DNA of 64,000 bases. Origin: Aigarchaeota archaeon (GTDB lineage: Archaea > Thermoproteota > Nitrososphaeria_A > Caldarchaeales > Wolframiiraptoraceae). The notes beneath the pieces are model-generated. The model was not told the origin of the DNA and did not search any database. It saw only the letters and a list, made by a program, of their open reading frames with translations. A program made the position numbers and the translations under genes. Position 1 is the stretch's first letter. Each line of letters opens with the position of its first letter. The DNA is taken from positions 9,050 through 73,049 of the forward strand of contig JANXDW010000006.1 of assembly GCA_025058515.1 (NCBI GenBank), written 5' to 3'. Below, piece after piece: positions 201 through 60,462 of this stretch.

Positions 201-2231
201 TTGATGATATCATTGAAGAAGATCCACTTATTACCGATAACAATATTAATAGTTCTCACGATAATCCAATCTTATCCACTGTTATATGGTAAGTATACGT
301 GGAATACAGGCTCGATAGAATCTGCATACATAGCTCAGTCTAGAATGCTTTCTGAGAATTTTCCCGTACCTGGATGGAATCCTCTCTGGTATGGTGGACA
401 CCCCTTCAAACTATCTTACTCACCAGGTTTTCTATATGTTGTACAATTAGCTTCAATACTTCTAGGAGTAGATATACCAGAAGCCTATAGAAGAGTCACA
501 GTTCTAACTTTGATTATACTTCCATTGACCATCTACTTCTTCATCTACTCACTATCTCGCTCAGTACTGGCTGGATCTTTATCCAGCATAATCTATCTCT
601 GTTTCCCATCGATTCATAGATTGATTTATGTTTATCCAGATATGCAGCCCTATCCCGACCATATAACACTTATCGGATTATATGGTGAGACACCCCACCT
701 CCTAGGATTATCATTAGCTTTAATCACGGTAACATTATTCTACCATCACGTAGAATCCAGAGAGAAGATCTATCTCATGATCATCGTCTTTATTATCGCA
801 TTCGTTAACATGGTCAATCTGATTGCGGCCGTATCCCTTCTGATATTCCTCTTATCTATAGCCGTTTTATCAGGATGGGGCGCCTTCAAAAAATTCCTAA
901 TTTTATACTTCTTCGGATGGGGACTCTGTTTATTCGTTTATGATTATGAGTATCTAAATGCTCTAACAATCTATCTACAGTTAACAATGAATAAGCAGAC
1001 TCTAACGACTCCATACATAGTTGTAATAATATTGGTTTTATCATCTACATTTGCTTTGGCCAGATTTCTGCAATCTAAAACAGGTATGAAAGCTTTAGCA
1101 GCAACACTGCCACTGGCAGTAGTGTTCTTGCTAGTAGTTGGCTTTAACAGATTTGCCGGTATAGAACTACTACCTCAAGCCATAAGATACAATCCAGAAT
1201 TCGATATCTCATTATATGGATTAGCAGTCTCTCTGTTATTCTTCTCACTTAATAGATTAAGGAGATACAGTGTTGTAGTCATAACAGTATTGCTGGCGGT
1301 CGCCATAATCTACTATGCTGAAGGATTACACTCTGCATGGAACATTTATAGAGTAGGTGACCATGAAATAGAAGATTCCTTAGAGAAGAAGATTGCAGAC
1401 TTTATCAACGAGCTGCCTGGAGATAGGTTCGGTCCACGAGTATATTCTACTGGCTCGATAGCATTCTGGCTAAACGTCTTCAATGGTAAACCACAGGTTA
1501 GAGGAGGATTCGACGAAGTCCCAGGAAGCATAAATCCTATGTGGGCTCATATCTCATATTTTGTTAATAATAGCCCCAACAGTACTCTTAGCATTAAATG
1601 GCTTAAAGCATTCAATGTAAGATACGTTATCGTAGATTTCCCATCAGCCCGCTTACCCTACAAAGACTATAGATATCCAGAAAAGTTTGAGAATAAACTC
1701 AATGTAATAAGAGATACTGATAATGTTAAAGTATATGAAGTTCCATTAGATGATTCTAGACCAATACAGCTTGTAAAGAAGACTGATCATATACCTATCC
1801 TTAGAGATATACAAGATATACAGAGTCTGGAAAGGTATCTTGAATTGATCGAAGATATGAAGTGTGGCCATAGCTTATATTATAATGTAGTTTCTAACAA
1901 CTTAATTGATGTAGAGATTAAGGAGCTTGGAGAAGACTGCTATCTTATCTTCAAAGTCAACTATGATAATGGGTGGAGAGCTTATCTAGATAAAGTAGAG
2001 TTGAAACCTAATCTAATCGGTCCAGGTTTCATCTACTATAACTTGAGTGGGGTTAGAGGAGATGTTAAGATCATGATAAGATATGTGGGTGAGAATGCTC
2101 TCAACTGGGTTTTTAACATGCTATCTATCATCTTTCTGGCGATGACTATATTATACTTCTTCGTGATGGAGAATAGGATCGTTTTAGGTAGAAGTCTTAT
2201 AAGATTCAAAAAATATATTCAGGCCAAGTAG
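201..2231 (+). CDS. Large polytopic membrane protein: about 11-13 predicted TM helices at the N-terminus plus a soluble C-terminal domain; possibly a GT-C-like glycosyltransferase. Paralog of 2875..5468.
   Basis: 676-aa ORF with long hydrophobic N-terminal half and a hydrophilic C-terminal half. The segment SENFPVPGWNPLWYGGHPFKLSYSPGF and PHLLGLSLALITVTLFYHHVESREKIYLMI are clearly paralogous to the downstream ORF pair 2875-5468. No AglB WWDYG motif, so function is left open. Confidence 0.5.
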   Translation: MMISLKKIHLLPITILIVLTIIQSYPLLYGKYTWNTGSIESAYIAQSRMLSENFPVPGWNPLWYGGHPFKLSYSPGFLYVVQLASILLGVDIPEAYRRVTVLTLIILPLTIYFFIYSLSRSVLAGSLSSIIYLCFPSIHRLIYVYPDMQPYPDHITLIGLYGETPHLLGLSLALITVTLFYHHVESREKIYLMIIVFIIAFVNMVNLIAAVSLLIFLLSIAVLSGWGAFKKFLILYFFGWGLCLFVYDYEYLNALTIYLQLTMNKQTLTTPYIVVIILVLSSTFALARFLQSKTGMKALAATLPLAVVFLLVVGFNRFAGIELLPQAIRYNPEFDISLYGLAVSLLFFSLNRLRRYSVVVITVLLAVAIIYYAEGLHSAWNIYRVGDHEIEDSLEKKIADFINELPGDRFGPRVYSTGSIAFWLNVFNGKPQVRGGFDEVPGSINPMWAHISYFVNNSPNSTLSIKWLKAFNVRYVIVDFPSARLPYKDYRYPEKFENKLNVIRDTDNVKVYEVPLDDSRPIQLVKKTDHIPILRDIQDIQSLERYLELIEDMKCGHSLYYNVVSNNLIDVEIKELGEDCYLIFKVNYDNGWRAYLDKVELKPNLIGPGFIYYNLSGVRGDVKIMIRYVGENALNWVFNMLSIIFLAMTILYFFVMENRIVLGRSLIRFKKYIQAK

Positions 2232-2874: not shown

Positions 2875-5468
2875 ATGGAGATAAGTATTAGAAATCAAAA
2901 TTTAAGATATTCAACAATTATTTTCATACTTATCATATTATCTTACAGTGTGGTGCTGTATTACATATTGCATAATTTTATGGGGTTCCCAGAGATGGCC
3001 TTGGGAGTTGATGCAGTACCTCATTCTGCAAAAATCCACATAATCAAGTCTCTAGGGTTTGAAGGATTCAGATGGTTTCCAACATATTATTTTGGGAATC
3101 CGCATTTTACTTTCTATACACCCTCCACATATATACTTCCTGCAATCGTGACCATTATTCTTGATTTAAACCATCTACAGATCATACAACTTTTAAACTG
3201 GATGTCTTTCTTCTCTGCAATCCTTATTCTAGCTGGGATAATATCATTTCTTTCATACGTAATAAAAGGTAGCAATAAGGTCATGCCAATAATCGGCGCC
3301 AGCCTCTTCCTGACATCTTCTCCAGGTCTAATGGAACCATGGTTATGGGGTGGAAATTTCCAGAATTTCTTACTTTACCAGCTATCCCTTGGAGTCTGCT
3401 ATTAATCGAGAAATGGTTACGAACGAGTAAAAGAATTTATCTGATAGGTTATCTGGTCATCGCCTCTTTCTCTATTATGGGGCATCAAGCAGTTGGTGGA
3501 TTTCTAGTATTTTCAACACTTCTATGGATACTTAGTGATGAGATAAAATGGAAGGTTAAAATGAAGAGAACAGTACTTTTACTGACCTCTTTAGTATGTC
3601 TGACCATTGTATACTTTGTACCATTACTTTACTTCGAGCTGACGACAAAGATACGTCCAGGGATAGTGGAAGATCTACCTTATCCATTTAATATAGGTGA
3701 TTATTTTCCAGTCTTCATGTTGATAGAGATACCTTCACTGCCCATGATCGGTAGTTCTCTACCAGGATCGCCCATACTTCTATTTTTTACATATTATATT
3801 TATTATCTTATAAAGAGAGATCATAAGATCTTTTTGAAGCGAGTAGTCGTTATCTCACTGATTCCAATCTTACTTATTGTACACTTTTTCTTAACTACTC
3901 AAAAAATCGTTCCCTGGATCGCTGGATTTCATCCTGCACGGTATATGGTATTCGTAACAATTTTTTCCTCTATAGTCTTAGGCATAATTTTATCGGATAT
4001 TAGGAGAAAACATCTATATACTTTCCTCATACTGACAATATTAATCATATCTCTTCACTATATTTTTCTTCCATCATATGAACTTCATAAAATGCACTCG
4101 GTAAATCTTTCATCTATAAATGAGTTTAAACTTATCGATGAATTACAGTTATCGATTTTCGGTAATCATTTCCGGATAGGAGGGGTAAAAGATGCCCTAT
4201 TCAATACTATCTCTTTGTTAAAACCGGATTATTACATATCGAGAGGTTATTACGCTCACGGCATATTATATCTTGATTGGCAGTATTGGTTCGAATATAC
4301 TCTATCAAGTCTTCCACATAACCCTAGTAACGAAAATACTTTAATGCATCTTCTCGATTGGGGTTCTATAAGATACTTAGGACTTACCGATTCTGAAGAA
4401 GGCTTTAAAATCGCTGAAGAAAAGTTTAGACCTATTGGTAAACTAGGCGACTTTACGATATTTGAGAACGACTTGGCACCACCTATCTCTGAATTTCTAT
4501 ATGATGGAGCGGTACTGGTTTTCGCCGATTATGAAGGTTACGATGTCTTGTTAAGATCTATTTCCATTAGTAACTATAGTAAACCTGCTCCAATCATCGT
4601 CTGGGCTGAGGGAAGATGTATTGATGATGTTCCAATCGATGTTTTGGAGAAGTTTTCTGTAACAGTTCTCTATAGGTATTGTTATCGAGATAGAGTGAAA
4701 GCTTTCCAGATTCTTGAACACTATGTTTCAGCCGGTGGCAGATTGTTTATAGAGACCATGTCATCTACTGATGAATCTTCTGAGATGCCTTCACCGATAC
4801 CAGTCTCGAAGACCCATAGGGCCATAATAGAAGATGACTGGAACTTTAAGATAGCTGAGCATAGCTTGACAGTCAGTATCTCAAATAATATCTTTTCTCC
4901 ACCAATGTATGATGGTGGACCCTGGGGTGTTAGTTCATCAAATCTAGAATATCTCAGAGATGGGGCTGAGCCTCTCCTGAAATCTAACGGTAGAGTCTTA
5001 GTTGCTTACATTAGATATGGGTATGGAGAGGTTGTCTGGTCTGGGATGAATCTACCATACCATGTTCTAGCATATCAGAATATTGCTGAAGCAGACTTCA
5101 TGAGAAGACTGATAATGTATAATGTGAGTGTTGAGATCGAGCCTGCTCAGATGTATAGAGATTCAGCTACATCTATATTGTTTAAAATACCGTCTAAGGT
5201 CAAAGGCATAATCTTTAGAGAAAGGTATATCTCGAACCTCGTATTTAGCTGGAAGGCTTCAGACTCTAAAGGAGAGCTAGATATTTTTATGATGGGTCCA
5301 GGGTTTAACTATATAGTCATCAAGGATACATATGGGAAAGTTGAAGATATTAGGCTTGTACTAGAGGATGGACCTCTTAGAACCAGCTCGATAATATTAT
5401 CACTCTCTACATTATTCTTACTTGTATACATGTCTCTAGACCATACTAAGAAGGAAAAAAGATCTTAA
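2875..5468 (+). CDS. Large polytopic membrane protein, paralog of 201..2231, encoded as two overlapping ORFs (2875..3405 and 3339..5468). A -1 frameshift at the heptamer A_AAT_TTC (3354..3360) is needed to fuse them into one protein of about 864 aa.
   Basis: Homology to ORF1 runs continuously across the frame change. ORF-A ...EPWLWGGNF followed by ORF-B PEFLTLPAIPWSLLLIEKWLRTSKRIYL matches ORF1 ...GLYGETPHLLGLSLALITVTLFYHHVESREKIYL. Frame B equals frame A minus 1. The slippery heptamer sits exactly at the junction. Confidence 0.5.
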
Positions 5469-5947
5469 CATTTTTACCTCTTTTTTATTTCTAAAAATGT
5501 ATTATCAAATACTGTTAAAGCTTTCACATGGAGGATTATTGACCCAGAATCTGAAGACTGGTCTACAGTAGACGTTGTTATTATAATAGTCTAAAGAATA
5601 GATTCTCTAAAGATGACTTATTGTTCTTCTCAATGAAGAAAGAAGTAGATTTATTTATAGGCTATTCAAATATCGCCTCGGTTGAGGATCTATTAGATAT
5701 AGAAGACTTGGATAAGAGAGAACTCTGTATAAAAATGGTTGGCGTAAGAAGATAGAATATAGTGAAGTCTATAGATTTAAGATAAATCTTCCATTACATC
5801 TAGCATTTCCAGGTCTTCATAGACTTGGTAGAGCACTAGATAGATTAGAACTCAGTCTAATCGAGGTTGAGAAAATATTCAATCTTGAAGATATTATTCT
5901 GAAACATCTAGAGATACAAAGAATACATGCTCGGAAAAGTAGACTAT

Positions 5948-6751
5948 TCAACGAACTCTAATCTTATCATGAACATGAGTGGTTTCTTTTGGAAGTGGTA
6001 GATCTGTAAAGATCTCTTTCAAATGATTTGTGTATCTGCTAGATGAACTGAAGATCCTTGAGATATCTATCCCTGATGATGTTTCAGGTATAGTAGGGAC
6101 CGTTACGTAGGCTCCACCAAAATATTCTTTAAACTCTTTCTCGAACTTCTTAACAGTCGAGCTGGTTTGATCGTAAAAGTTGATTACAGGTTTAATAGAA
6201 CATTTAAAATGTGAATAGATATTCTCCATTCTATCTTTGAAGATCTTAAATTCGTAAAGGCTCGGCCTCAGAACATATATCACAAAATCCGAGATATAGC
6301 TTACTACTGCTAAAGTATAGAACATCCACGGTGGAGTATCAATTACTACATAGTCTAGAGGTTCATCTCTGATAATCCATCTCTCACGTTCTAAAGCCTT
6401 AACAATTCTCTTATCTTTTTCTGCATCTAGAATTTCCATCCTTCTTCTAGCACCTTCAGAAGTGTTTGCATAGATTGCATAAAGGCTCTGAGATGGTAGA
6501 CCAGCGGTGTCGCTTACGTCTATCGAAGCTTCTTCTATCGAGGCTTCACCCGTTATCCAATCATTAGACCATTTTGCAACATGTCTCTCTATAGGGATAA
6601 GATGTTCAAGCACAGGATTTAAGAAGTCTGCCTCGACATAGAGTGTCCTACCTCTTCGAGCTAAATTGTATGCAAGTGTTAAAGCTACTGATGTAGCTCC
6701 AGAGCCACCTCTAGAATGTTGTACAGAGAAAACCACCGGCAAAATGATCAT
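5948..6751 (-). CDS. ParA/MinD-like P-loop protein (SIMIBI class) with degenerate Walker A, probably ATPase-dead
   Basis: N-terminal SRGGSGATSVALTLAYNLARRGRTLYVEADF aligns to the ParA/MinD KGGVGKTT...VLLVDAD pattern, but both the signature Lys and the P-loop Lys are replaced (R and A). A later VVIDTPPW motif is equivalent to the ParA Walker B region. Confidence 0.5.
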   Translation of the reverse strand: MIILPVVFSVQHSRGGSGATSVALTLAYNLARRGRTLYVEADFLNPVLEHLIPIERHVAKWSNDWITGEASIEEASIDVSDTAGLPSQSLYAIYANTSEGARRRMEILDAEKDKRIVKALERERWIIRDEPLDYVVIDTPPWMFYTLAVVSYISDFVIYVLRPSLYEFKIFKDRMENIYSHFKCSIKPVINFYDQTSSTVKKFEKEFKEYFGGAYVTVPTIPETSSGIDISRIFSSSSRYTNHLKEIFTDLPLPKETTHVHDKIRVR

Positions 6752-7359
6752 GTATATGAAGTAACTCTAGTTTAAAAATCTAAAAATGGTAGATTATCAT
6801 TTTTTACAAAATCTTAAATCATTTATGTAATAATGTTGATTAAACTAACGGTCTACGAAGGTGTGAGTATCTCTCTACTTGTTTCTTCACGATTCGACAG
6901 TTTAACGAGCGTTCTCCATCTTCTTATGATTTAAAAAGTCTATTGATGAAAGTAGGAATTTTGCTGATCAATTATCTAATGATTATGTTGAGTTCTAGGA
7001 ATGAATATGGAGAAAGCATAATCTTCTATCTTCAAGCTTCTCATTGATTTTTACTATTTCTAGTGACGTTAATCACTTTTAGATATTAAGATTAGCAGAA
7101 TCTCTATATCTTTCAAGATAATTTTTCTACAACTTTCATGATAATGAAAAAAGTTATTCTTAAGAGATATTATCTATGTTTTTGATTATAAGGTCTTCTA
7201 TAATAAATAGATCTCCTCTACACTTTTAATGAAATCGTATATTCTTTGCTATTATAGGTCTTCAGTGAAGATAACTTTTATAAATGAGGTTAACAAATTT
7301 ATAAAAAGTTCTTTTAATTTGGCAAAAATGTTATATAATACTAGAGGAGATTATGTTAT

Positions 7360-7503
7360 ATGCAATTAGAGGAGTTTGCATTAAAATTGGGCCTATCCAA
7401 AGAACTGCTAACAATACTATTGATACAAGCAGCGATAACAGCAGTAATGTTAGCTTTAGGAATTGAAGTCTTAGGTACAAAATCTGGTAAAGTACCATCT
7501 TAA
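7360..7503 (+). CDS. Small hypothetical protein (47 aa) with one predicted TM helix; speculative
   Basis: Read directly from sequence: ATG at 7360 preceded by GGAGA about 10 nt upstream. Translation is MQLEEFALKLGLSKELLTILLIQAAITAVMLALGIEVLGTKSGKVPS. Below the 60-aa cut-off of the ORF track. Lies in an otherwise 750-bp noncoding stretch. Confidence 0.2.
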   Translation: MQLEEFALKLGLSKELLTILLIQAAITAVMLALGIEVLGTKSGKVPS

Positions 7504-7505
7504 AA

Positions 7506-8549
7506 CTACTTAAACAATCTTACTTTCTCTAATATTTTTTCAGTTATTAGATCGAAGACATTTATCCAGCCTTTATTATCATTATACGGTAGTCCATCGC
7601 AGAGAAAGTTTGCAGTGTGCTTCATGCTTAGGAAGTCGAATAATTCAATATTCATTCTCTCATTCATATATCTAACAGTCTTGTAAAATCCTAATGATGG
7701 AATAAACAACATAACATAATATTTTCTATCATCGGTCTTCATCTCCAAGTGGCTAAATGGGATGTTAAGCATTGTCTTACGAGATATCTCATCAAAAGAT
7801 GATCCTACTATCAATGGTACTGAGACCAGTTCAGGATTTTCTTTAGGTATCCATAATAACCCATACATGTATATTGTTTTCTTTATTTTTTCATAATGTC
7901 TCTTGATCGTTTGTCTCGTTACATTCAAGTAATTCGCTAGTTCAGTATATTTTACAAAAGCATTCTCATTTAATTTTGCAAGTATCTTTAAGTCTAGAGA
8001 TGTTAGATTCTCGAATCCAGTTGGTATCTCATAAATCTCATGTATTTCTTCACTTTTATGTTCATCCCAATTAAGAGACCACACTCCTCGATTAAAATCA
8101 AAGCAATTAGTTCTAAATGGGATCAATCTTCTATATTCTAATTTATTAATGGTGTACCTTCTAAGTAATTTTAAATCGATTAATCTATCTAGAAAATTTA
8201 TGAATGAGTCTTGGAAAGATGGAGGTATCGAGAATATTGTTAAGAATTTTCTTTCTTTCATGAGGTATGTATAGTAATTTAGGTATGCTCTCTCCCCGAG
8301 TAAGTCTAATAGACTACACATATACTCGAGAGGTAATGATGTTTCTATTAGCACTAGGTATCTTTGTAACCCTAGTAGTCCATAGTTTATTGCTGCACGA
8401 ACTATGAATCCTAGTCTCGGCAATTTCTCCCGTAGAATGTATCTTACAGTCGTTACTGGCACTCCTGTTTCTTTAGAGATCTTTGAATATCTTGGACCAT
8501 AATTCATTAATGCTTTTACAACTTCTCTACTTGGGTCAGTATATTGCAT
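7506..8549 (-). CDS. Transcriptional regulator with two AsnC/Lrp-type HTH modules
   Basis: N-terminal VKALMNYGPRYSKISKETGVPVTTVRYILREKL and a second module DLKILAKLNENAFVKYTELANYLNVTRQTIKRHYEKI both match the AsnC-type HTH pattern (HTH_24-like). Each is followed by about 100 aa of unknown fold. Confidence 0.5.
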   Translation of the reverse strand: MQYTDPSREVVKALMNYGPRYSKISKETGVPVTTVRYILREKLPRLGFIVRAAINYGLLGLQRYLVLIETSLPLEYMCSLLDLLGERAYLNYYTYLMKERKFLTIFSIPPSFQDSFINFLDRLIDLKLLRRYTINKLEYRRLIPFRTNCFDFNRGVWSLNWDEHKSEEIHEIYEIPTGFENLTSLDLKILAKLNENAFVKYTELANYLNVTRQTIKRHYEKIKKTIYMYGLLWIPKENPELVSVPLIVGSSFDEISRKTMLNIPFSHLEMKTDDRKYYVMLFIPSLGFYKTVRYMNERMNIELFDFLSMKHTANFLCDGLPYNDNKGWINVFDLITEKILEKVRLFK

Positions 8550-17708: not shown

Positions 17709-19529
17709 TTAAGAGGGAGATTCTCGAGATACATACCATCTTGTCTCTTTAGCGGTATCTTCTAAGATTATTCCAAGACTTCTAAGTCTTTCTCTAATCT
17801 CATCAGCCAAACTATATTCACCTCTCTTCCTCAACTTATCTCTTATATCTACTATTAAATCAACTAGGTCTCTCATCCTTTCATCACTTAACTTCATGAC
17901 CTCTTTCTGAAGAATATTCAAGATACTTCCAAGTTCTCGAAAGACTTTAACAATCTCTTCAGCTATCTTCTTATTCAGTTTTCCTCGATCCTTACAATAT
18001 TTAAAGAATATTGTTGCAAATTCATGTAAAGTAGCTATTGCTCTCGGTGTATCTAGATCATCGTCTAAAGCTTCCAAGAACTCTTTCTTCATATATTCTA
18101 AGCTTTCTCCAAGCTTCCTCGTCTCATCATCTTGTTCATCATCTTTAGGCATAAAAGATGCATAACGTATAACATTGTATATTCTCTCAAGTCCCTGCTC
18201 TGCTTGCTTAATAGGTGTCTCGAGCAGATGTTCAGGCTTGATAGGGTTTAAGAGATCAGGTTCGAATGGAAGCTTTAAGTCCATTCTATGCCTATACTTA
18301 GTTAAAAGCACCCAGTACCTTAATACCTCTGGATCAAATACCTTTAAAGCATCTCTAACACTGATATAGTTTCCAAGTGATTTAGACATCTTCTTACCAT
18401 TAACCGTTAATACATCTGTGTGAACCCAGAACTTAACCCAAGGCTTAATCTTCGTGTATGCTTCAGCTTGAGCTATCTCTGCTTCATGATGGGGGAACAT
18501 CAACTCTTTAGCTCCACCGTGAATATCTATCTGAGAACCTAGAAGCCTCAAGATGATCGTTGTATCCTCGATATGCCAACCTGGTCTCCCAACACCCCAT
18601 GGAGAATCCCAGCAAGGCTCTCTCGGATGACCCTTCTTAATCTTTCTCCATAAAGCCCAGTCAGCATCGTTCTTCTTATTAGGATCCAGTTCAATTCTAT
18701 GAACTCTGTACTCTCTATCTGGGTCTACTCCTGAAAGTTTACCATAGTCTTTGAACTTTGAAGAATTGAAGTATAAAGCATTAGGTGTATCATATGCATA
18801 GCCTTCTTCCTCCAACTTTTTCGCAACACTTATTATCTCTTCTATGAATTCGCTTGCTCTTGCATAGACATTTATAGTAGTTATTCCAAGCTTCTTCATA
18901 TCTTCTCTAAAATATTCTTCAAATTCTTTAGCTATACCAATAGGATCAAGTTTAGATCCTCTTGATATTATCTCATCGATAATCTTTTTACCATTCTCAG
19001 AGATACGTAATACTCTATTGGGAGTAATACTGTCTTTAAGAGCTTCATACTGCTCCTCAAGCTTCCTCTCTTCTATTTCATCATCTACTAGAGAAAGCTT
19101 CTTCTCCAATTCTATCAACTCTCTTCTCAAATCTTGAGTATCAGCTAATTCTACTAAACCAGATTTAATCAACTCGATAACCCTCTCTCTAGCATATTCT
19201 ACACCTAGACCTAATTTCTCTGCTAATTCCTCCAACCTCATATCTGTATCCTTGAGAAGATAGAGAGCCTTCCTATCGATAGATCTATTAATAATCTTAT
19301 CATCTACATCTGTAATATTCATTAAGAAGTAGACTGAGTATCCTTTGTAAGATAGATATCTAGCTAAGACATCGTAGAAGATATAGGTCTTCATGTGACC
19401 TATATGCATATAATCATAAACAGTTGGACCACAGACGTACATGAATACCTTATTACCGCTTACTGGAGTAAACTCTTCAATCTCATGATTGAGAGAATTA
19501 TATATCTTTAAACTTTTATCCGTGGTCAT
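17709..19529 (-). CDS. cysS: Cysteinyl-tRNA synthetase (class I) with an inserted winged-helix-like domain of about 95-110 aa
   Basis: CGPTVYDYMHIGHMKTY (HIGH), KKMSKSLGN (KMSKS), and the Zn-binding Cys in YVCGPT. 606 aa versus about 460-480 typical. Extra segment between NITDVDDKIINRS and KKIIDEIISRGSKLDPIGIAKEF. Confidence 0.85.
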   Translation of the reverse strand: MTTDKSLKIYNSLNHEIEEFTPVSGNKVFMYVCGPTVYDYMHIGHMKTYIFYDVLARYLSYKGYSVYFLMNITDVDDKIINRSIDRKALYLLKDTDMRLEELAEKLGLGVEYARERVIELIKSGLVELADTQDLRRELIELEKKLSLVDDEIEERKLEEQYEALKDSITPNRVLRISENGKKIIDEIISRGSKLDPIGIAKEFEEYFREDMKKLGITTINVYARASEFIEEIISVAKKLEEEGYAYDTPNALYFNSSKFKDYGKLSGVDPDREYRVHRIELDPNKKNDADWALWRKIKKGHPREPCWDSPWGVGRPGWHIEDTTIILRLLGSQIDIHGGAKELMFPHHEAEIAQAEAYTKIKPWVKFWVHTDVLTVNGKKMSKSLGNYISVRDALKVFDPEVLRYWVLLTKYRHRMDLKLPFEPDLLNPIKPEHLLETPIKQAEQGLERIYNVIRYASFMPKDDEQDDETRKLGESLEYMKKEFLEALDDDLDTPRAIATLHEFATIFFKYCKDRGKLNKKIAEEIVKVFRELGSILNILQKEVMKLSDERMRDLVDLIVDIRDKLRKRGEYSLADEIRERLRSLGIILEDTAKETRWYVSRESPS

Positions 19530-52535: not shown

Positions 52536-54491
52536 ATGGTCTCGGCCAGAACTATTAACAGGATCTTTTCACCTATACTATCAGGGTTAAATCATATATT
52601 CTTCAGACCTGTAACTATTAAGTATCCATTCGAGAAGAGTTACAATATTCCAGATTCTAACTATAGATTTGATCCAAAAGAAGGTATAGCTTATCCAGGG
52701 TATAGGGGGAGGCACATCCTATACCTTGACAAGTGTACGGGATGTGGTGCATGTGACCGTGCATGTGAAAATATATCTGAAGCAATAAGTATGGTACATG
52801 GATATGATTTATCTTTAAAGCTTAGTGAAGATGCATACAACAACCTAAAACATGAAGGAGAGGTTGCTAAAGCGTTTAAACTATTATTAGAACCATTCTC
52901 GGGAGAGTCAAAATCAATTGAGAAGAGAGAAGATATCTACACTATAAGATTGAACACAGACCCACTCTTCGAGTATAGATATGAAGTACTTTATGAGAAT
53001 CTTCTAGAGAACCCCTTCCACAGATTAATTAAGAATGGGTGGAGTATAGACCTAGTTGAACATAAGCCAGTGGAAAGTGCGAGATTTAAGATAAGTAAAG
53101 AAGCCTATGTAATAGAGTTAAGTATAGAGAAAAGAGACTTCGGTATAAAGCAGAATAAGAGGAGTATTTTCCCTGCAATAGATTATGGGAGATGCCTTCC
53201 ACCTTGGACGCCGGTCTTCACGTTGGATGGGATAAAACCTATCCAAGAGGTTAAGGTAGGTGATTTAGTATTAACGCATACAGGTCGGTTCAAGAAGGTT
53301 ACACATGTATTTGAAAGAAGTTATACTGGTCTCCTATACACTTTCAAGACGCTTGGTAATGTTGAACCGCTGACGGTCACGGAGGAACATCCAATCTTAA
53401 CCTACATAATGGGCACTATGAGGTGGGTACTCCCAAGGCAGATCAGTTATAGGACATACCTTGTAAGGTCAATACCATTAGAAACCCTCCAACTTGAGAG
53501 GCTAATGTTTTACCATGAACAATATCATCTGACTGGGCGAGGCGGCTGCACGACGTTACTCTACAATGAGCTAACGCCATCACCTGACTTAATGAGGTTA
53601 ATCGGTTACTATATCGTAGAAGGTACAGCTGACAGTTATGGAGTATCGTTTGACATTGGTGAAGAGAAGCGAGATCTAGTTGAGGAAATAATAGTAGCTA
53701 GCAAGAATATCTTTCGAGAAAAGATCTCAATAAAGCTAAATCATTCCTCGGAGGGGTTGAAGTTGGTAATAGACTCGGTTGAGGTCATGGACTTCTTCAA
53801 GCAATTCGGTACGAGAAGCGACCAGAAACATCTCCCTAACTGGGCTCTCCTCATGCCAGTAGATCTTCAGAGAGAATTGATTAGAGCAATATATTTAGGA
53901 GATGGATATTACAGTAATAATCATCGTTCATACATGTATTCAGATTACTTCGTCATCCGAACAACCTCTCGGATATTGGCTAACCAGCTTCCTTACATCT
54001 TGGCTAGATTAGGGGTTGTTGCCTCTATCTCTCTTCAGAAACATAGTAGTGGGGAAAACTGCTACACAATAAAAATCCATAAGCCATTTATCGAGAAGAT
54101 GGCTTCAATTGTTGGAGTAAAAGTTAAGAACGGTGGCTCAAACTCTCAATACAACATAAAAATGGTTGATGATAGAATCATCATATCACCGGTCATCGAC
54201 ATTAATGTTAATTACGTTCATAATTTTAAGGTATACAACTTAGAGGTTGAGGAAGATCAAAGCTTTATAGCGTCAAACCAGATAGTCCATAACTGTGTTT
54301 TCTGCGGATTCTGCGTTGATGCCTGCCCCTTTTACGCACTCGAGATGGGACCATCCTATGAATTATCATCACTTGAACGAGAAGAACTATTCTATACTCC
54401 TCTTATGCTCGCAAACAAGTTCTTCGAGACCTATCCACCAGAAACAACATGGTCTGAGAAAACAGTTATGCTCATTAGGAGGTTCAAGTAG
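52536..54491 (+). CDS. nuoI: NuoI-type two-[4Fe-4S] ferredoxin subunit of complex I. It carries a 367-aa LAGLIDADG intein and an extra insertion of about 100 aa between the two cluster motifs.
   Basis: N-extein FRPVTIKYPFEKSYNIPDSNYRFDPKEGIAYPGYRGRHILYLDKCTGCGACDRAC matches the NuoI YPxE..P.RYRGR..L...CxxCxxCxxxC pattern. C-extein CVFCGFCVDACPFYALE is the second CxxCxxCxxxCP. The mature extein would be 284 aa. Confidence 0.75.
   Translation: MVSARTINRIFSPILSGLNHIFFRPVTIKYPFEKSYNIPDSNYRFDPKEGIAYPGYRGRHILYLDKCTGCGACDRACENISEAISMVHGYDLSLKLSEDAYNNLKHEGEVAKAFKLLLEPFSGESKSIEKREDIYTIRLNTDPLFEYRYEVLYENLLENPFHRLIKNGWSIDLVEHKPVESARFKISKEAYVIELSIEKRDFGIKQNKRSIFPAIDYGRCLPPWTPVFTLDGIKPIQEVKVGDLVLTHTGRFKKVTHVFERSYTGLLYTFKTLGNVEPLTVTEEHPILTYIMGTMRWVLPRQISYRTYLVRSIPLETLQLERLMFYHEQYHLTGRGGCTTLLYNELTPSPDLMRLIGYYIVEGTADSYGVSFDIGEEKRDLVEEIIVASKNIFREKISIKLNHSSEGLKLVIDSVEVMDFFKQFGTRSDQKHLPNWALLMPVDLQRELIRAIYLGDGYYSNNHRSYMYSDYFVIRTTSRILANQLPYILARLGVVASISLQKHSSGENCYTIKIHKPFIEKMASIVGVKVKNGGSNSQYNIKMVDDRIIISPVIDINVNYVHNFKVYNLEVEEDQSFIASNQIVHNCVFCGFCVDACPFYALEMGPSYELSSLEREELFYTPLMLANKFFETYPPETTWSEKTVMLIRRFK
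53193..54293 (+). mobile_element. Intein (367 aa) with LAGLIDADG homing-endonuclease domain, inserted in nuoI
   Basis: Begins with Cys1 (CLPPWTPVFTLDG = block A), LTHTG/KVTHVF (block B). LAGLIDADG motifs LIGYYIVEGTADSYG and LIRAIYLGDGYYSNN. C-terminal blocks F/G VYNLEVEEDQSFIASNQIVHN, followed by the +1 Cys (CVFCGFC). Confidence 0.75.
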
Positions 54492-54642: not shown

Positions 54643-55005
54643 ATGTCTTCAGAACACTTATCACAAACCATCAAAGACCGTAGAATACTTAGAGAAGCTT
54701 ATACATTATGCAGGATGATAATCTTTAATCTAAGATCTTTCCTAGATGTTGAAGATTACGGATATCTGAAAAAAGCTTGTGAACTAGCTGAGTACGCTTC
54801 ATCTAAGATAGATTATCTTGAGAATATGCATGGATTCAGAGACCTTTACAATAATTTGAAAGACCTCCGTAATCAACTTGAGTCTAAATCTTGGAAGCTT
54901 ACAGAAGAAGAATATGGAAGGATATCCGAGCAAGTTACATACACAATCGTAAGAGCTAACATTATCGCGATGGGATTAAACTTTAAGCTTAAAAGAATGA
55001 AATAA
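54643..55005 (+). CDS. Hypothetical helical protein (120 aa)
   Basis: ORF only. Confidence 0.3.
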   Translation: MSSEHLSQTIKDRRILREAYTLCRMIIFNLRSFLDVEDYGYLKKACELAEYASSKIDYLENMHGFRDLYNNLKDLRNQLESKSWKLTEEEYGRISEQVTYTIVRANIIAMGLNFKLKRMK

Positions 55006-56373: not shown

Positions 56374-56781
56374 TTGTTGATCATGCTGTTTAGTTGGGTG
56401 ATGAGGTTGTCCCCTCTCTTTGCTCTCACTCTATACATCGTGTTCGCAGTAGCTACAGTAGTAATCATGGCTTTAGTACCTTTAATACTTGCACCTTGGA
56501 AGCCTATGATTAAAAAGAAGATCTCATTTGAGTGTGGTCAGACACCTTTTCCATGGAGAGAAGAAGCATTCCCATACGAGTATTTCCCATATCTTATCAT
56601 ATACGTGGCCTACGCAGTAATAGGAGTAGTAGTCTTCCTATCTAGCATAGTCTTGGTAGAAGCCCCCCACCTAGCCGATAGAATACTCATCCTCTTTGGA
56701 TCACTTACAGTCGGAGCATTCTTCATAGGTATCCAATTAAGAGAGCTTAAACAAAAACTTGTAGCAGGAAGAGGTGAGTAA
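56374..56781 (+). CDS. Small membrane subunit, NuoA-like (tentative)
   Basis: Three predicted TM helices. SFECGQTPFPW resembles the NuoA PYECG/PFESG motif. Stop lies 3 nt before the nuoH start (operonic). Confidence 0.4.
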   Translation: MLIMLFSWVMRLSPLFALTLYIVFAVATVVIMALVPLILAPWKPMIKKKISFECGQTPFPWREEAFPYEYFPYLIIYVAYAVIGVVVFLSSIVLVEAPHLADRILILFGSLTVGAFFIGIQLRELKQKLVAGRGE

Positions 56782-56784
56782 ACT

Positions 56785-57786
56785 ATGTTCTCAACTATAA
56801 TTGATATTTTAACTAGTGAAGAGTTTATTAAAGCCGCTTTCTTCCCAGGAATAACCTTAGTTATGCTCTATGCTCTATTTACGGTATGGTATGAGAGGAA
56901 GCTACTTGCGAGAGTTGCTTTGAGGATTGGTCCACTGCATGTCGGTAAGATTGCAGGGGTATTCCAATTGGTTGCGGACGCTGTAAAACTATTAACTAAA
57001 GAAGTAATCGTACCCTCCAAGGCTTACAAAATATTATTCGTGATCTCTCCGATAATAGGAGGATTCCTACCTCTTCTAATATTTCCATTTATACCATTTG
57101 GAAGTAGCTGGATAATATATCCATCTAATGTTAGCTTGCTTATAGTATTCGCGATAATAGCGGTCTCACCTATACCTTTCCTAGTAGCTGCATGGGCTTC
57201 TAGAAGCAAATACCCCTTTATAGGCATGCTGAGATTCGGATTCCAGCTATTTGCTTACGAAGTCCCACTATTCCTAGCTCTAATACCCGTAGTCATACTC
57301 ACAGGTAGCCTAGACCTTCAAGAGATAGTTACTGCACAGAAGAATTTCCCATTTATACTTATTCTACCCTTATCATTCATAGTCTTCTTGATCAGTAGTA
57401 TAGCTGAGGTTGAGAGAATACCTTTCGATATACCAACAGCTGAGCAAGAGCTGGTAGCAGGCTGGACCACAGAGTACTCTGGAGTATTATTAGAGTTTAT
57501 ACAACTTGGAGCATATCTTAAAGCTGATGCTCTTGCAGTTATCACATCCATCTTGTTCCTAGGAGGATGGCTTGGACCAGATATACCGTTCATTCCATTA
57601 GAGATAGAAGAACCATTCTGGCTTATGTTGAAATCTCTGATAGTGTTATCTTTCATATTGTTCTTGAGAGGTGTCTATCCTAGGATAACCATCGATAGAC
57701 TACTAGATCTAGGTTGGAGAACGCTTATACCATTAGCTCTACTAAACATATTCATCGCAGCTATAATCGTAGTTTACATCTTCTAG
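56785..57786 (+). CDS. nuoH: NADH-quinone oxidoreductase subunit H (ND1 homolog)
   Basis: ERKLLARVALRIGPLHVGKIAGVFQLVADAVKLLTKE; FDIPTAEQELVAGWTTEYSG (E. coli [20 protein letters not shown]); eight or so TM helices. 333 aa. Confidence 0.9.
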   Translation: MFSTIIDILTSEEFIKAAFFPGITLVMLYALFTVWYERKLLARVALRIGPLHVGKIAGVFQLVADAVKLLTKEVIVPSKAYKILFVISPIIGGFLPLLIFPFIPFGSSWIIYPSNVSLLIVFAIIAVSPIPFLVAAWASRSKYPFIGMLRFGFQLFAYEVPLFLALIPVVILTGSLDLQEIVTAQKNFPFILILPLSFIVFLISSIAEVERIPFDIPTAEQELVAGWTTEYSGVLLEFIQLGAYLKADALAVITSILFLGGWLGPDIPFIPLEIEEPFWLMLKSLIVLSFILFLRGVYPRITIDRLLDLGWRTLIPLALLNIFIAAIIVVYIF

Positions 57787-60372: not shown

Positions 60373-60462
60373 GGGCCGGTAGTCTAGAGGTTATGACGCC
60401 GCCCTCACAGAATTTCTTCGAGGAGACGGCGGAGGACGTGGGTTCGAATCCCACCCGGCCCA
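60373..60462 (+). tRNA. tRNA-Val (anticodon CAC) with a 17-nt intron at the canonical 37/38 position; CCA not encoded
   Basis: Acceptor GGGCCGG/CCGGCCC, D-arm GTCT..TGAC, anticodon stem CCGCC/GGCGG with loop CTCACA-[intron GAATTTCTTCGAGGAGA]-C, T-arm GTGGG TTCGAAT CCCAC, discriminator A. An A/T-rich box ACATATAT lies about 25-30 nt upstream. Confidence 0.8.

Follow-up and report, generated by a model that had tools for sequence, protein, structure and literature searches.

The nuoI gene of an archaeon of the Caldarchaeales/Aigarchaeota branch, which encodes the Fe-S ferredoxin subunit of complex I, is in all probability interrupted by a canonical class-1 full-length intein, i.e. a HINT domain that is split by a LAGLIDADG homing endonuclease with two motifs. 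The gene lies on a stretch of 64,000 nucleotides of contig JANXDW010000006.1 (assembly GCA_025058515.1), referred to as the window in the following. A first-pass annotation of the window had described an open reading frame (ORF) of 651 amino acids (aa) containing an intein of 367 residues, and both the ORF and the stop-free translation of the inserted segment were confirmed (Table 1). The translated segment runs from CLPPWTPVFTLDG to FIASNQIVHN and is directly followed by CVFCGFCVDACP. The corresponding 1101 bp of intein DNA are in frame, and the precursor ORF is intact over 1953 bp. On the opposite strand of the nuoI stretch the ORF listing contained no ORF of 80 aa or more. Excision of the 367 residues yields a protein of 284 aa in which the CxxCxxCxxxC motif occurs twice (C67-C77 and C220-C230 in the numbering of the spliced protein), the second motif being followed by Pro. 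The residue directly after the intein (Cys+1) is the first Cys of this second motif. The ligated extein has a predicted mass of 33.1 kDa and the intein one of 42.2 kDa, in agreement with the approximately 33 and 42 kDa that had been anticipated. The exact 651-aa protein is also encoded on an identical 13.6-kb Logan contig from SRR15826899, an assembly that may share its source with the window.

To characterize the element we compared it with family profiles, with homologous inteins and with solved structures. The endonuclease profile PF14528 (LAGLIDADG_3) matched with 33.8 bits (gathering score 22.5, E 4e-8) and TIGR01443 (NCBIfam intein_Cterm) with 17.3 bits, above its cut-off of 15.6. Homologous inteins matched the window intein at E-values between 1e-101 and 1e-128. 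In an alignment of 60 inteins from four insertion sites (the NuoI site of the window, a second NuoI site, IscU-like proteins and a DNA methyltransferase) the residues C1, H29, G31, G55, T63, H66, G138, Y140, G144, F205, K212, G238, S259, P333 and N367 were invariant, while E143, D237 and H366 were conserved in at least 90% of the sequences. The window intein has kept all splicing residues among these (C1, T63, H66, H366 and N367) as well as all endonuclease residues (G138, Y140, E143, G144, K212, D237 and G238). The cores of the two endonuclease motifs, LIGYYIVEG and AIYLGDG, carry E143 and D237, respectively, and the C-terminal junction reads ...IVHN/C, where here and below a slash marks the point of insertion. 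Block A with Cys1, the terminal His-Asn pair, Cys+1 and the two LAGLIDADG motifs were all found where they had been placed at first reading. The exception was block B, which had been taken to be LTHTG...THVF. This assignment was wrong: the real block B is LTVTEEHPIL with the pattern T63-x-x-H66, as seen from the invariance of both residues in the 60 inteins and from the span of TIGR01445 over residues 1-70.

The fold leads to the same assignment. An AlphaFold2 model built on the intein alignment reached a predicted local distance difference test score (pLDDT) of 93.9 and a predicted template modelling score (pTM) of 0.91, with an alpha/beta core flanked by N- and C-terminal parts that are rich in beta structure. 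When this model was compared with the PDB using Foldseek, places 1-16 were all taken by solved endonuclease-bearing inteins. The best of them was TliVMA (7qsu/7qss, E 2e-22, template modelling score 0.73-0.77), followed by PI-SceI, PhoVMA, PI-PkoII and PI-PfuI, while free LAGLIDADG enzymes such as I-DmoI ranked after the inteins. Entry 7qsu was also the best PDB match by sequence (E 2e-7). The E-values of PF14528, of the homologous inteins and of Foldseek confirm a match to inteins far beyond chance, and profiles and fold thus bear out the check by intein profiles that the first-pass annotation had proposed.

Several observations weigh against a canonical intein. The profile PF14890 (Intein_splicing) scored 31.6 bits, below its cut-off of 35.8 (E 1.8e-7), and TIGR01445 (intein_Nterm) scored 17.8 bits, below its cut-off of 24.5 (E 5e-3), even though it covered residues 1-70 end to end; the E-values of both are significant. 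Many inteins carry Asp and His in block F at the equivalents of positions 349 and 356. The window intein departs from this consensus at both, with Asn349 and Gln356. Asn349 is conserved throughout the intein family. At position 356 at least 95% of the relatives have Asn, where the window intein has Gln. Finally, splicing and endonuclease activity are both deduced from sequence. With all splicing residues kept, the window intein is nonetheless very likely competent for splicing.

A second line of evidence comes from alleles that lack the element. With the spliced extein as query, 67 clusters of homologues of the same long form (282-330 aa) were obtained, and 67 out of 67 were free of an intein. 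The closest long-form orthologues were exactly 284 aa long and 79, 74, 74, 74, 72 and 70% identical; about ten empty clusters fell in the range of 60-79% identity to the spliced extein. According to their source labels the closest empty orthologues belong to Nitrososphaerota, Caldarchaeales, Aigarchaeota or Caldarchaeum. Two empty orthologues were placed on contigs (loci L002-L005). These loci and the window have a common gene order: aldo-keto reductase, methyltransferase, nuoI, a 116-120-aa ORF, phosphofructokinase, an 83-84-aa ORF, nuoA and nuoH, continuing after nuoH with aspS, Alba, a sulfide:quinone reductase-like gene, TusA and DsrE. The comparison with orthologous nuoI that the first-pass annotation had suggested thus returned intein-free alleles of exactly 284 aa in the same neighbourhood. 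At the junction the window reads ...GATTATGGGAGA/1101 bp/TGTGTTTTCTGC... (longer right flank TGTGTTTTCTGCGGATTC), compared to ...GATTATGGTAGA/TGTGTTTTCTG... in the empty alleles L002 and L004 (longer right flank TGTGTTTTCTGTGGATTC). The 45-bp empty site of these two alleles is CCAGCCATAGATTATGGTAGA/TGTGTTTTCTGTGGATTCTGTGTA, and 39 of the 45 flanking bases equal those of the window. Relative to the syntenic empty loci, the 1101-bp insertion is exact at the DNA level.

Such precision bears on whether the insertion could instead have inactivated nuoI, leaving a non-splicing pseudogene, or could be an assembly chimera of two nuoI genes. The source is uncultured, and the region of CVFCGFCVDACP is similar enough in different taxa that chimeras could in principle arise there. 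We nevertheless regard both variants as scarcely credible. The uninterrupted ORF and the full set of splicing residues speak against a pseudogene. Both flanks stem from one long-form host that is syntenic with L002-L005, and the GC content of the intein (41%) fits that of the host genome (38%) and not GC-rich Nitrososphaerales junctions. No database sequence was more than 55% identical, such that a second parent for a chimera is missing, and the identical gene was found on the Logan contig, although this may go back to the same source as the window.

The host protein itself deviates from the common form of NuoI. For the spliced extein the top NCBIfam family was TIGR01971 (NuoI), followed by the NuoI, NdhI and FpoI equivalogs. 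The TIGR01971 score of 83 bits remained under the cut-off of 113.05, since a lineage-specific insert of approximately 115-130 aa breaks the match into two stretches. This insert is located between the two cluster motifs and is common to all long-form homologues. The best PDB matches of the spliced extein by sequence were NdhI, NDUFS8/TYKY, NuoI/Nqo9 and the related MBS and MBH subunits, and Cys+1 of the window aligned with the first Cys of their second cluster motif. This alignment supports the earlier claim that the +1 residue is a cluster Cys, and the 284-aa length together with the best NCBIfam and PDB matches (NuoI/NdhI/NDUFS8) supports the claim that removal of the intein restores a NuoI-like protein. 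The N-terminal segment typical of NuoI (..T..YP.E....RGRH.L) is present and aligns with NuoI of Nitrososphaerota, with 48% identity to a cluster (P0092) that its sources name NADH-quinone oxidoreductase subunit I. Because the host scores below the curated cut-off, its identity rests on the operon context in relatives: in GCA_033581195.1 (L087) the long-form gene is embedded in the order nuoB-nuoC-nuoD-long nuoI-116 aa-nuoA-nuoH, and in Ca. Caldarchaeum subterraneum (L086) it adjoins coxII-coxI and nuoA-nuoH. The host is accordingly classified as a divergent long form orthologous to NuoI, which probably fills the NuoI role, and not as a model-conforming NuoI.

In the window as well as in L002-L005 nuoI is located 2-3 kb upstream of nuoA-nuoH. 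The complex I genes of this lineage are scattered: a small ORF, a phosphofructokinase gene and an 83-aa ORF separate nuoI from nuoA-nuoH, and within the 64 kb only nuoA and nuoH were seen besides nuoI, with no nuoB/C/D/J-N and no second nuoI. The 120-aa ORF that comes after nuoI has no Pfam match. It directly follows the long-form nuoI in every relative examined (L002, L004, L086 and L087), and its counterpart in L087 sits between nuoI and nuoA inside the nuo cluster. With 24 invariant residues, including the C-terminal segment Y..IVRAN....G..F..KR, its product may be an accessory subunit.

Table 1. Positions in the window of the nuoI precursor, of its predicted splice parts and of neighbouring genes.
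Feature	Position	Strand	Remarks
nuoI precursor ORF	52536..54491	+	651 aa + stop, 75.3 kDa
N-extein, 219 aa	52536..53192	+	NuoI N-terminal region, first CxxCxxCxxxC (C67-C77), lineage-specific inserted domain (~88-205), ...FPAIDYGR
Predicted intein, 367 aa, 42.2 kDa, class 1 (Cys1 ... His366-Asn367)	53193..54293	+	
Block A CLPPWTPVFTLDG	53193..53231	+	Cys1, predicted N-terminal splicing nucleophile; C1 invariant in alignments
Block B EPLTVTEEHPILT, containing T63-x-x-H66	53364..53402	+	T63 and H66 invariant; TIGR01445 over intein residues 1-70
LAGLIDADG homing-endonuclease domain, approximately intein residues 128-320	53574..54152	+	PF14528, AlphaFold secondary structure, Foldseek (I-DmoI, PI-SceI, PI-PfuI)
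LAGLIDADG motif 1 LMRLIGYYIVEG, intein residues 133-144, predicted catalytic E143	53589..53624	+	
LAGLIDADG motif 2 LIRAIYLGDGYY, intein residues 229-240, predicted catalytic D237	53877..53912	+	
Blocks F and G FKVYNLEVEEDQSFIASNQIVHN, penultimate His366, terminal Asn367	54225..54293	+	TIGR01443 above cut-off; H366 and N367 conserved
C-extein, 65 aa + stop	54294..54491	+	Starts with Cys+1 (codon 54294-54296), second motif CVFCGFCVDAC
Conserved 120-aa ORF after nuoI	54643..55005	+	Context, outside the intein
nuoA	56374..56781	+	Neighbouring complex I gene
nuoH	56785..57786	+	Neighbouring complex I gene

The window intein belongs to a larger family. Searching with the intein only returned approximately 80 clusters (P0121-P0200) of proteins of about 490-553 aa, each consisting of a short NuoI and an intein of 366-370 aa that was 45-55% identical to the window intein. 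All of them are inserted at one junction, DYGR/C...HN/CVFC(G or A), i.e. at the same codon as in the window (site a), and members such as P0122, P0136 (MBI3858626.1) and P0198 (on OY970160.1) share the same splicing and endonuclease residues. The hosts differ: these inteins reside in a canonical short NuoI of approximately 165-175 aa encoded between nuoH and nuoJ, compared to the 284-aa long form encoded apart from nuoH in the window, whose intein is the most divergent member at site a. On the complete chromosome OY970160.1 the intein-bearing nuoI is found between nuoH and nuoJ-nuoK-nuoM-nuoL. A scan of GTDB with one genome per species revealed at least 16 species with a site-a intein at 43-51% identity, labelled as Conexivisphaerales, Nitrososphaerales, 'Thaumarchaeota' or 'Nitrososphaerota'. 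In their sources the intein-bearing NuoI proteins are named '4Fe-4S binding protein', 'formate hydrogenlyase subunit 6/NADH:ubiquinone oxidoreductase subunit I' or 'ferredoxin', and only few are named 'intein/homing endonuclease'. From word-indexed searches the window had appeared to hold the only long-form NuoI with an intein. An exhaustive phmmer search refuted this by returning two further ones (P0248 and P0251).

NuoI carries a second insertion site (site b) six residues downstream, CVFCGF/C...N/CVDACP, directly before the third Cys of the same motif. Its inteins form 12 clusters (P0207-P0218) and are 29-34% identical to the window intein. Both sites can be occupied at once. Mini-inteins of 170-182 aa at site a are combined with a full intein at site b in P0201, P0202, P0250 and eight GTDB loci (L022-L028 and L031), among them L022, where the double-intein nuoI (about 5680..7824) again lies between nuoH and nuoJ. 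Two full inteins in one NuoI were seen in P0248 and P0249, while a 172-aa mini-intein at site a is the sole intein of P0253. The metagenome-assembled genome YP3.bin16 contains a single-intein nuoI (L011) as well as a double-intein nuoI (L022). Particularly informative is the comparison of the two additional long-form proteins: P0248 has full inteins at both sites, its site-a copy being 51% identical to the window intein, whereas P0251 has an intein at site b alone. Their exteins are 93% identical and their site-b inteins 61%. This contrast in the presence of the site-a intein is indicative of a NuoI intein family that turns over quickly. Outside NuoI, the IscU/NifU-like proteins P0222 and P0223 carry an intein 28% identical to that of the window at GNPS/C...VHN/CGD, a point that we take to lie directly before the cluster-ligand Cys of the scaffold.

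Class-1 inteins splice through an N-S acyl shift, trans-thioesterification, Asn cyclisation and a final S-N shift. Applied to the window, the 75-kDa precursor would be translated and undergo the N-S acyl shift at the Arg219-Cys1 bond, upon which the N-extein would be moved to the Cys+1 thiol by trans-thioesterification. Cyclisation of Asn367 would then free the intein, and the S-N shift would complete the ligation to the 284-aa NuoI (33.1 kDa). Once released, the 42-kDa intein would cleave intein-free nuoI alleles as a homing endonuclease. Since such homing would address a highly conserved target, it would account for the patchy spread over very different NuoI hosts. In the 2x[4Fe-4S] ferredoxin fold each motif serves both clusters: its first three Cys are ligands of one, its fourth Cys is a ligand of the other. 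As long as the intein is in place, the second motif stands 367 residues apart and one of its ligands serves as splicing nucleophile, such that cluster loading is expected after splicing. Most likely, both [4Fe-4S] clusters would thus be acquired, and NuoI incorporated into complex I, only once splicing has taken place.

From this arrangement one could also conceive of a conditional switch, in which splicing is tied to the redox state or to metal/Fe-S availability and gates complex I maturation post-translationally. The junction offers Cys1 and Cys+1, the latter followed by CxxCxxxC. Both independent NuoI sites lie directly before a cluster-ligand Cys, and so does the related intein of the IscU/NifU-like P0222. 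Redox-sensitive splicing has moreover been documented for the mycobacterial SufB (PMC8891592) and DnaB (PMC6195587) inteins. We nonetheless consider a switch, for which the support is indirect, improbable. Because homing requires conserved sites, inteins generally occupy conserved catalytic or cofactor motifs, such that the position is explained without a regulatory role. An element that is absent from nearly all close relatives can furthermore not be required. For the family as a whole we consider it very improbable that NuoI inteins exploit, or were co-opted for, redox- or iron-dependent splicing that gates the maturation of the N6a/N6b subunit and complex I assembly in Nitrososphaerota.

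As for the origin of the window copy, the analysis speaks more for homing from a donor that has not been sampled than for vertical descent from ancient times. The third codon positions of the intein have a GC content (GC3) of 0.44, compared to 0.34 ± 0.03 for 17 window genes, i.e. about three standard deviations above, which is consistent with a foreign origin. Within the family the mean pairwise identity is 63% for inteins and 74% for exteins, while the window and its relatives are 46-55% identical in the intein and 42-56% in the extein. It is the combination of the GC3, this identity pattern and the emptiness of all close orthologues that argues for horizontal acquisition. In the intein tree the window intein forms a long branch that groups loosely with P0121, P0124, P0127 and the P0122 cluster. 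That no close donor was found, with a best intein identity of 55%, counts against this origin. Scanning IMG/VR with the intein alignment returned no viral relatives. In the flanking DNA, the first 20 codons of the C-extein (54294..54353) have a GC3 of 0.55, compared to 0.25 and 0.35 in the empty L002 and L004, and they differ from the empty alleles by eight synonymous and no non-synonymous changes. Being limited to 20 codons, this provides a weak hint of a co-conversion tract that may have been left by homing.

Alternatively, the intein could be an ancient resident of nuoI in Nitrososphaerota that descended vertically, was lost precisely many times and was kept in the lineage of the window. 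The near equality of intein and extein identity would fit this, as would the positive correlation between the two (r = 0.47 for all pairs, r = 0.59 for comparisons with the window) and the site-a intein of P0248 in a second long-form lineage. We regard it as rather unlikely in view of the 67 empty clusters out of 67, which include the approximately ten at 60-79% identity. Inteins normally diverge faster than exteins, such that equal identity suggests a transfer younger than the split of the hosts. The raised GC3 and the rapid turnover between P0248 and P0251 likewise speak for homing into the window lineage.

Whether the endonuclease is still functional is less clear. At 111 positions that are conserved in at least 95% of 90 relatives the window intein deviates 16 times, compared to a mean of 1.7 and a maximum of 8 deviations among the relatives, which counts against an unimpaired element. 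The endonuclease domain accounts for twelve of the 16 deviations, R150G, R287G and K288E among them, and Gln356 likewise belongs to the 16. The predicted target DNA, encoding (I or V)DYGR/CVFCG(F or L)C, is highly conserved. Compared with the targets of other hosts, the reconstituted target of the window clade shows 10-15 differences over 45 bp. The deviations may therefore reflect retargeting or an early decay of the endonuclease.

It is accordingly a possibility, if a tentative one, that the intein splices while its homing endonuclease is inactive or decaying, which would leave a fixed passenger that is no longer mobile. The loss of three conserved basic residues alongside intact splicing residues and the long branch in the intein tree point in this direction. 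Mini-inteins without endonuclease at the same site (P0201, P0253, L022-L031) make endonuclease decay a documented fate there. For an active enzyme speak the intact E143, D237 and K212, the intact LAGLIDADG helices and a full-length domain modelled at a pLDDT of more than 90. The window is furthermore an outgroup host with a different, AT-rich target, such that the substitutions may reflect retargeting, and the emptiness of all close orthologues suggests a fairly recent and hence active invasion. Homing on intein-free nuoI alleles is supported indirectly, by the variable presence in P0248 versus P0251 and by the spread over several orders, as far as can be judged from sequence comparison.

Among intein hosts, proteins of replication, repair and nucleotide metabolism are strongly over-represented. 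The first-pass annotation had called the insertion in NuoI unusual and possibly undescribed. This holds for the literature, as full-text searches, which covered few subscription journals and did not include InBase, found no description of an intein in NuoI or any other complex I subunit. It does not hold for sequence databases, where the same codon is occupied in approximately 80 clusters and at least 16 Nitrososphaerota species of GTDB. The main text of a 2015 intein census (PMC4760082) mentions neither NADH nor ferredoxin. Publications on Caldarchaeales that were consulted for complex I gave nothing usable. In the NCBIfam scan the intein-aware models of Tes, GyrA and RecA were matched, and none for NuoI surfaced. 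The best NCBIfam match of the window intein was NF045703, the model of the radical-SAM tetraether lipid synthase Tes (E 1.4e-13, residues 103-365), which remained far below the cut-off and covered mainly the endonuclease part.

Among known systems the VMA inteins (TliVMA 7qsu/7qss, Pyrococcus PhoVMA 7qst and yeast PI-SceI 1vde) are most similar in architecture, with the same HINT and two-motif LAGLIDADG domains, Cys1, His-Asn and Cys+1. Their host is likewise a subunit of a bioenergetic membrane complex, the catalytic subunit of the A/V-ATPase, and not a DNA enzyme. They differ by an identity of only 13-20% and by an insertion in the P-loop region of the ATPase instead of an Fe-S ferredoxin subunit; unlike in VMA inteins, the +1 residue in the window is a metal-cluster ligand. 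Proteins of Fe-S metabolism or Fe-S enzymes are likewise interrupted by the mycobacterial SufB intein, whose splicing was reported to be stress-sensitive (PMC8891592), and by the Tes intein (NF045703). Hosts and sites are however others, and SufB is a cluster-assembly scaffold and not an electron-transfer subunit. Several neighbouring intein sites, as in NuoI with its sites a and b, are known from haloarchaeal MCM (PMC10643990) and mycobacterial DnaB (PMC6195587). NuoI alleles carry none, a, b or both; the window allele is occupied at site a only, such that the neighbouring-site feature is seen in its relatives.

Elsewhere in the window PolB, the Lhr helicase and cysteinyl-tRNA synthetase (CysRS) were without intein signatures. 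The CysRS ORF (17709..19529 on the minus strand, 606 aa) is oversized: its catalytic-domain profile of 291 positions is spread over 400 residues, which implies an insertion of approximately 110 aa, in which no intein or Hint signature was found. On the plus strand at 60373..60462 Rfam predicts a 90-nt tRNA with 61.7 bits that ARAGORN did not report. Its length exceeds the 71 positions of the Rfam model, which points to a probable archaeal intron. Two further ORFs on the plus strand, 201..2231 (676 aa) and 3339..5468 (709 aa), match no significant Pfam family.

Taken as a whole, NuoI is a new host protein for what is otherwise a textbook intein, one that is already abundant, though unlabelled, in public data. 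The element leaves the understanding of how inteins or complex I work unchanged. An intein family in a core Fe-S subunit of the respiratory chain does, however, widen the known host range. Intein-bearing NuoI proteins are mis-sized and poorly named in annotation, and genomes of Nitrososphaerota from soil and hot springs would gain from an intein-aware NuoI model. With its two sites at a distance of six residues, and with alleles that are empty or contain one intein, two inteins or a mini-intein, NuoI lends itself to work on homing interference and on the intein life cycle. In NuoI, nature furthermore offers a case where one and the same Cys is the +1 splicing nucleophile and a [4Fe-4S] ligand, such that the competition or ordering of cluster insertion and splicing becomes testable.

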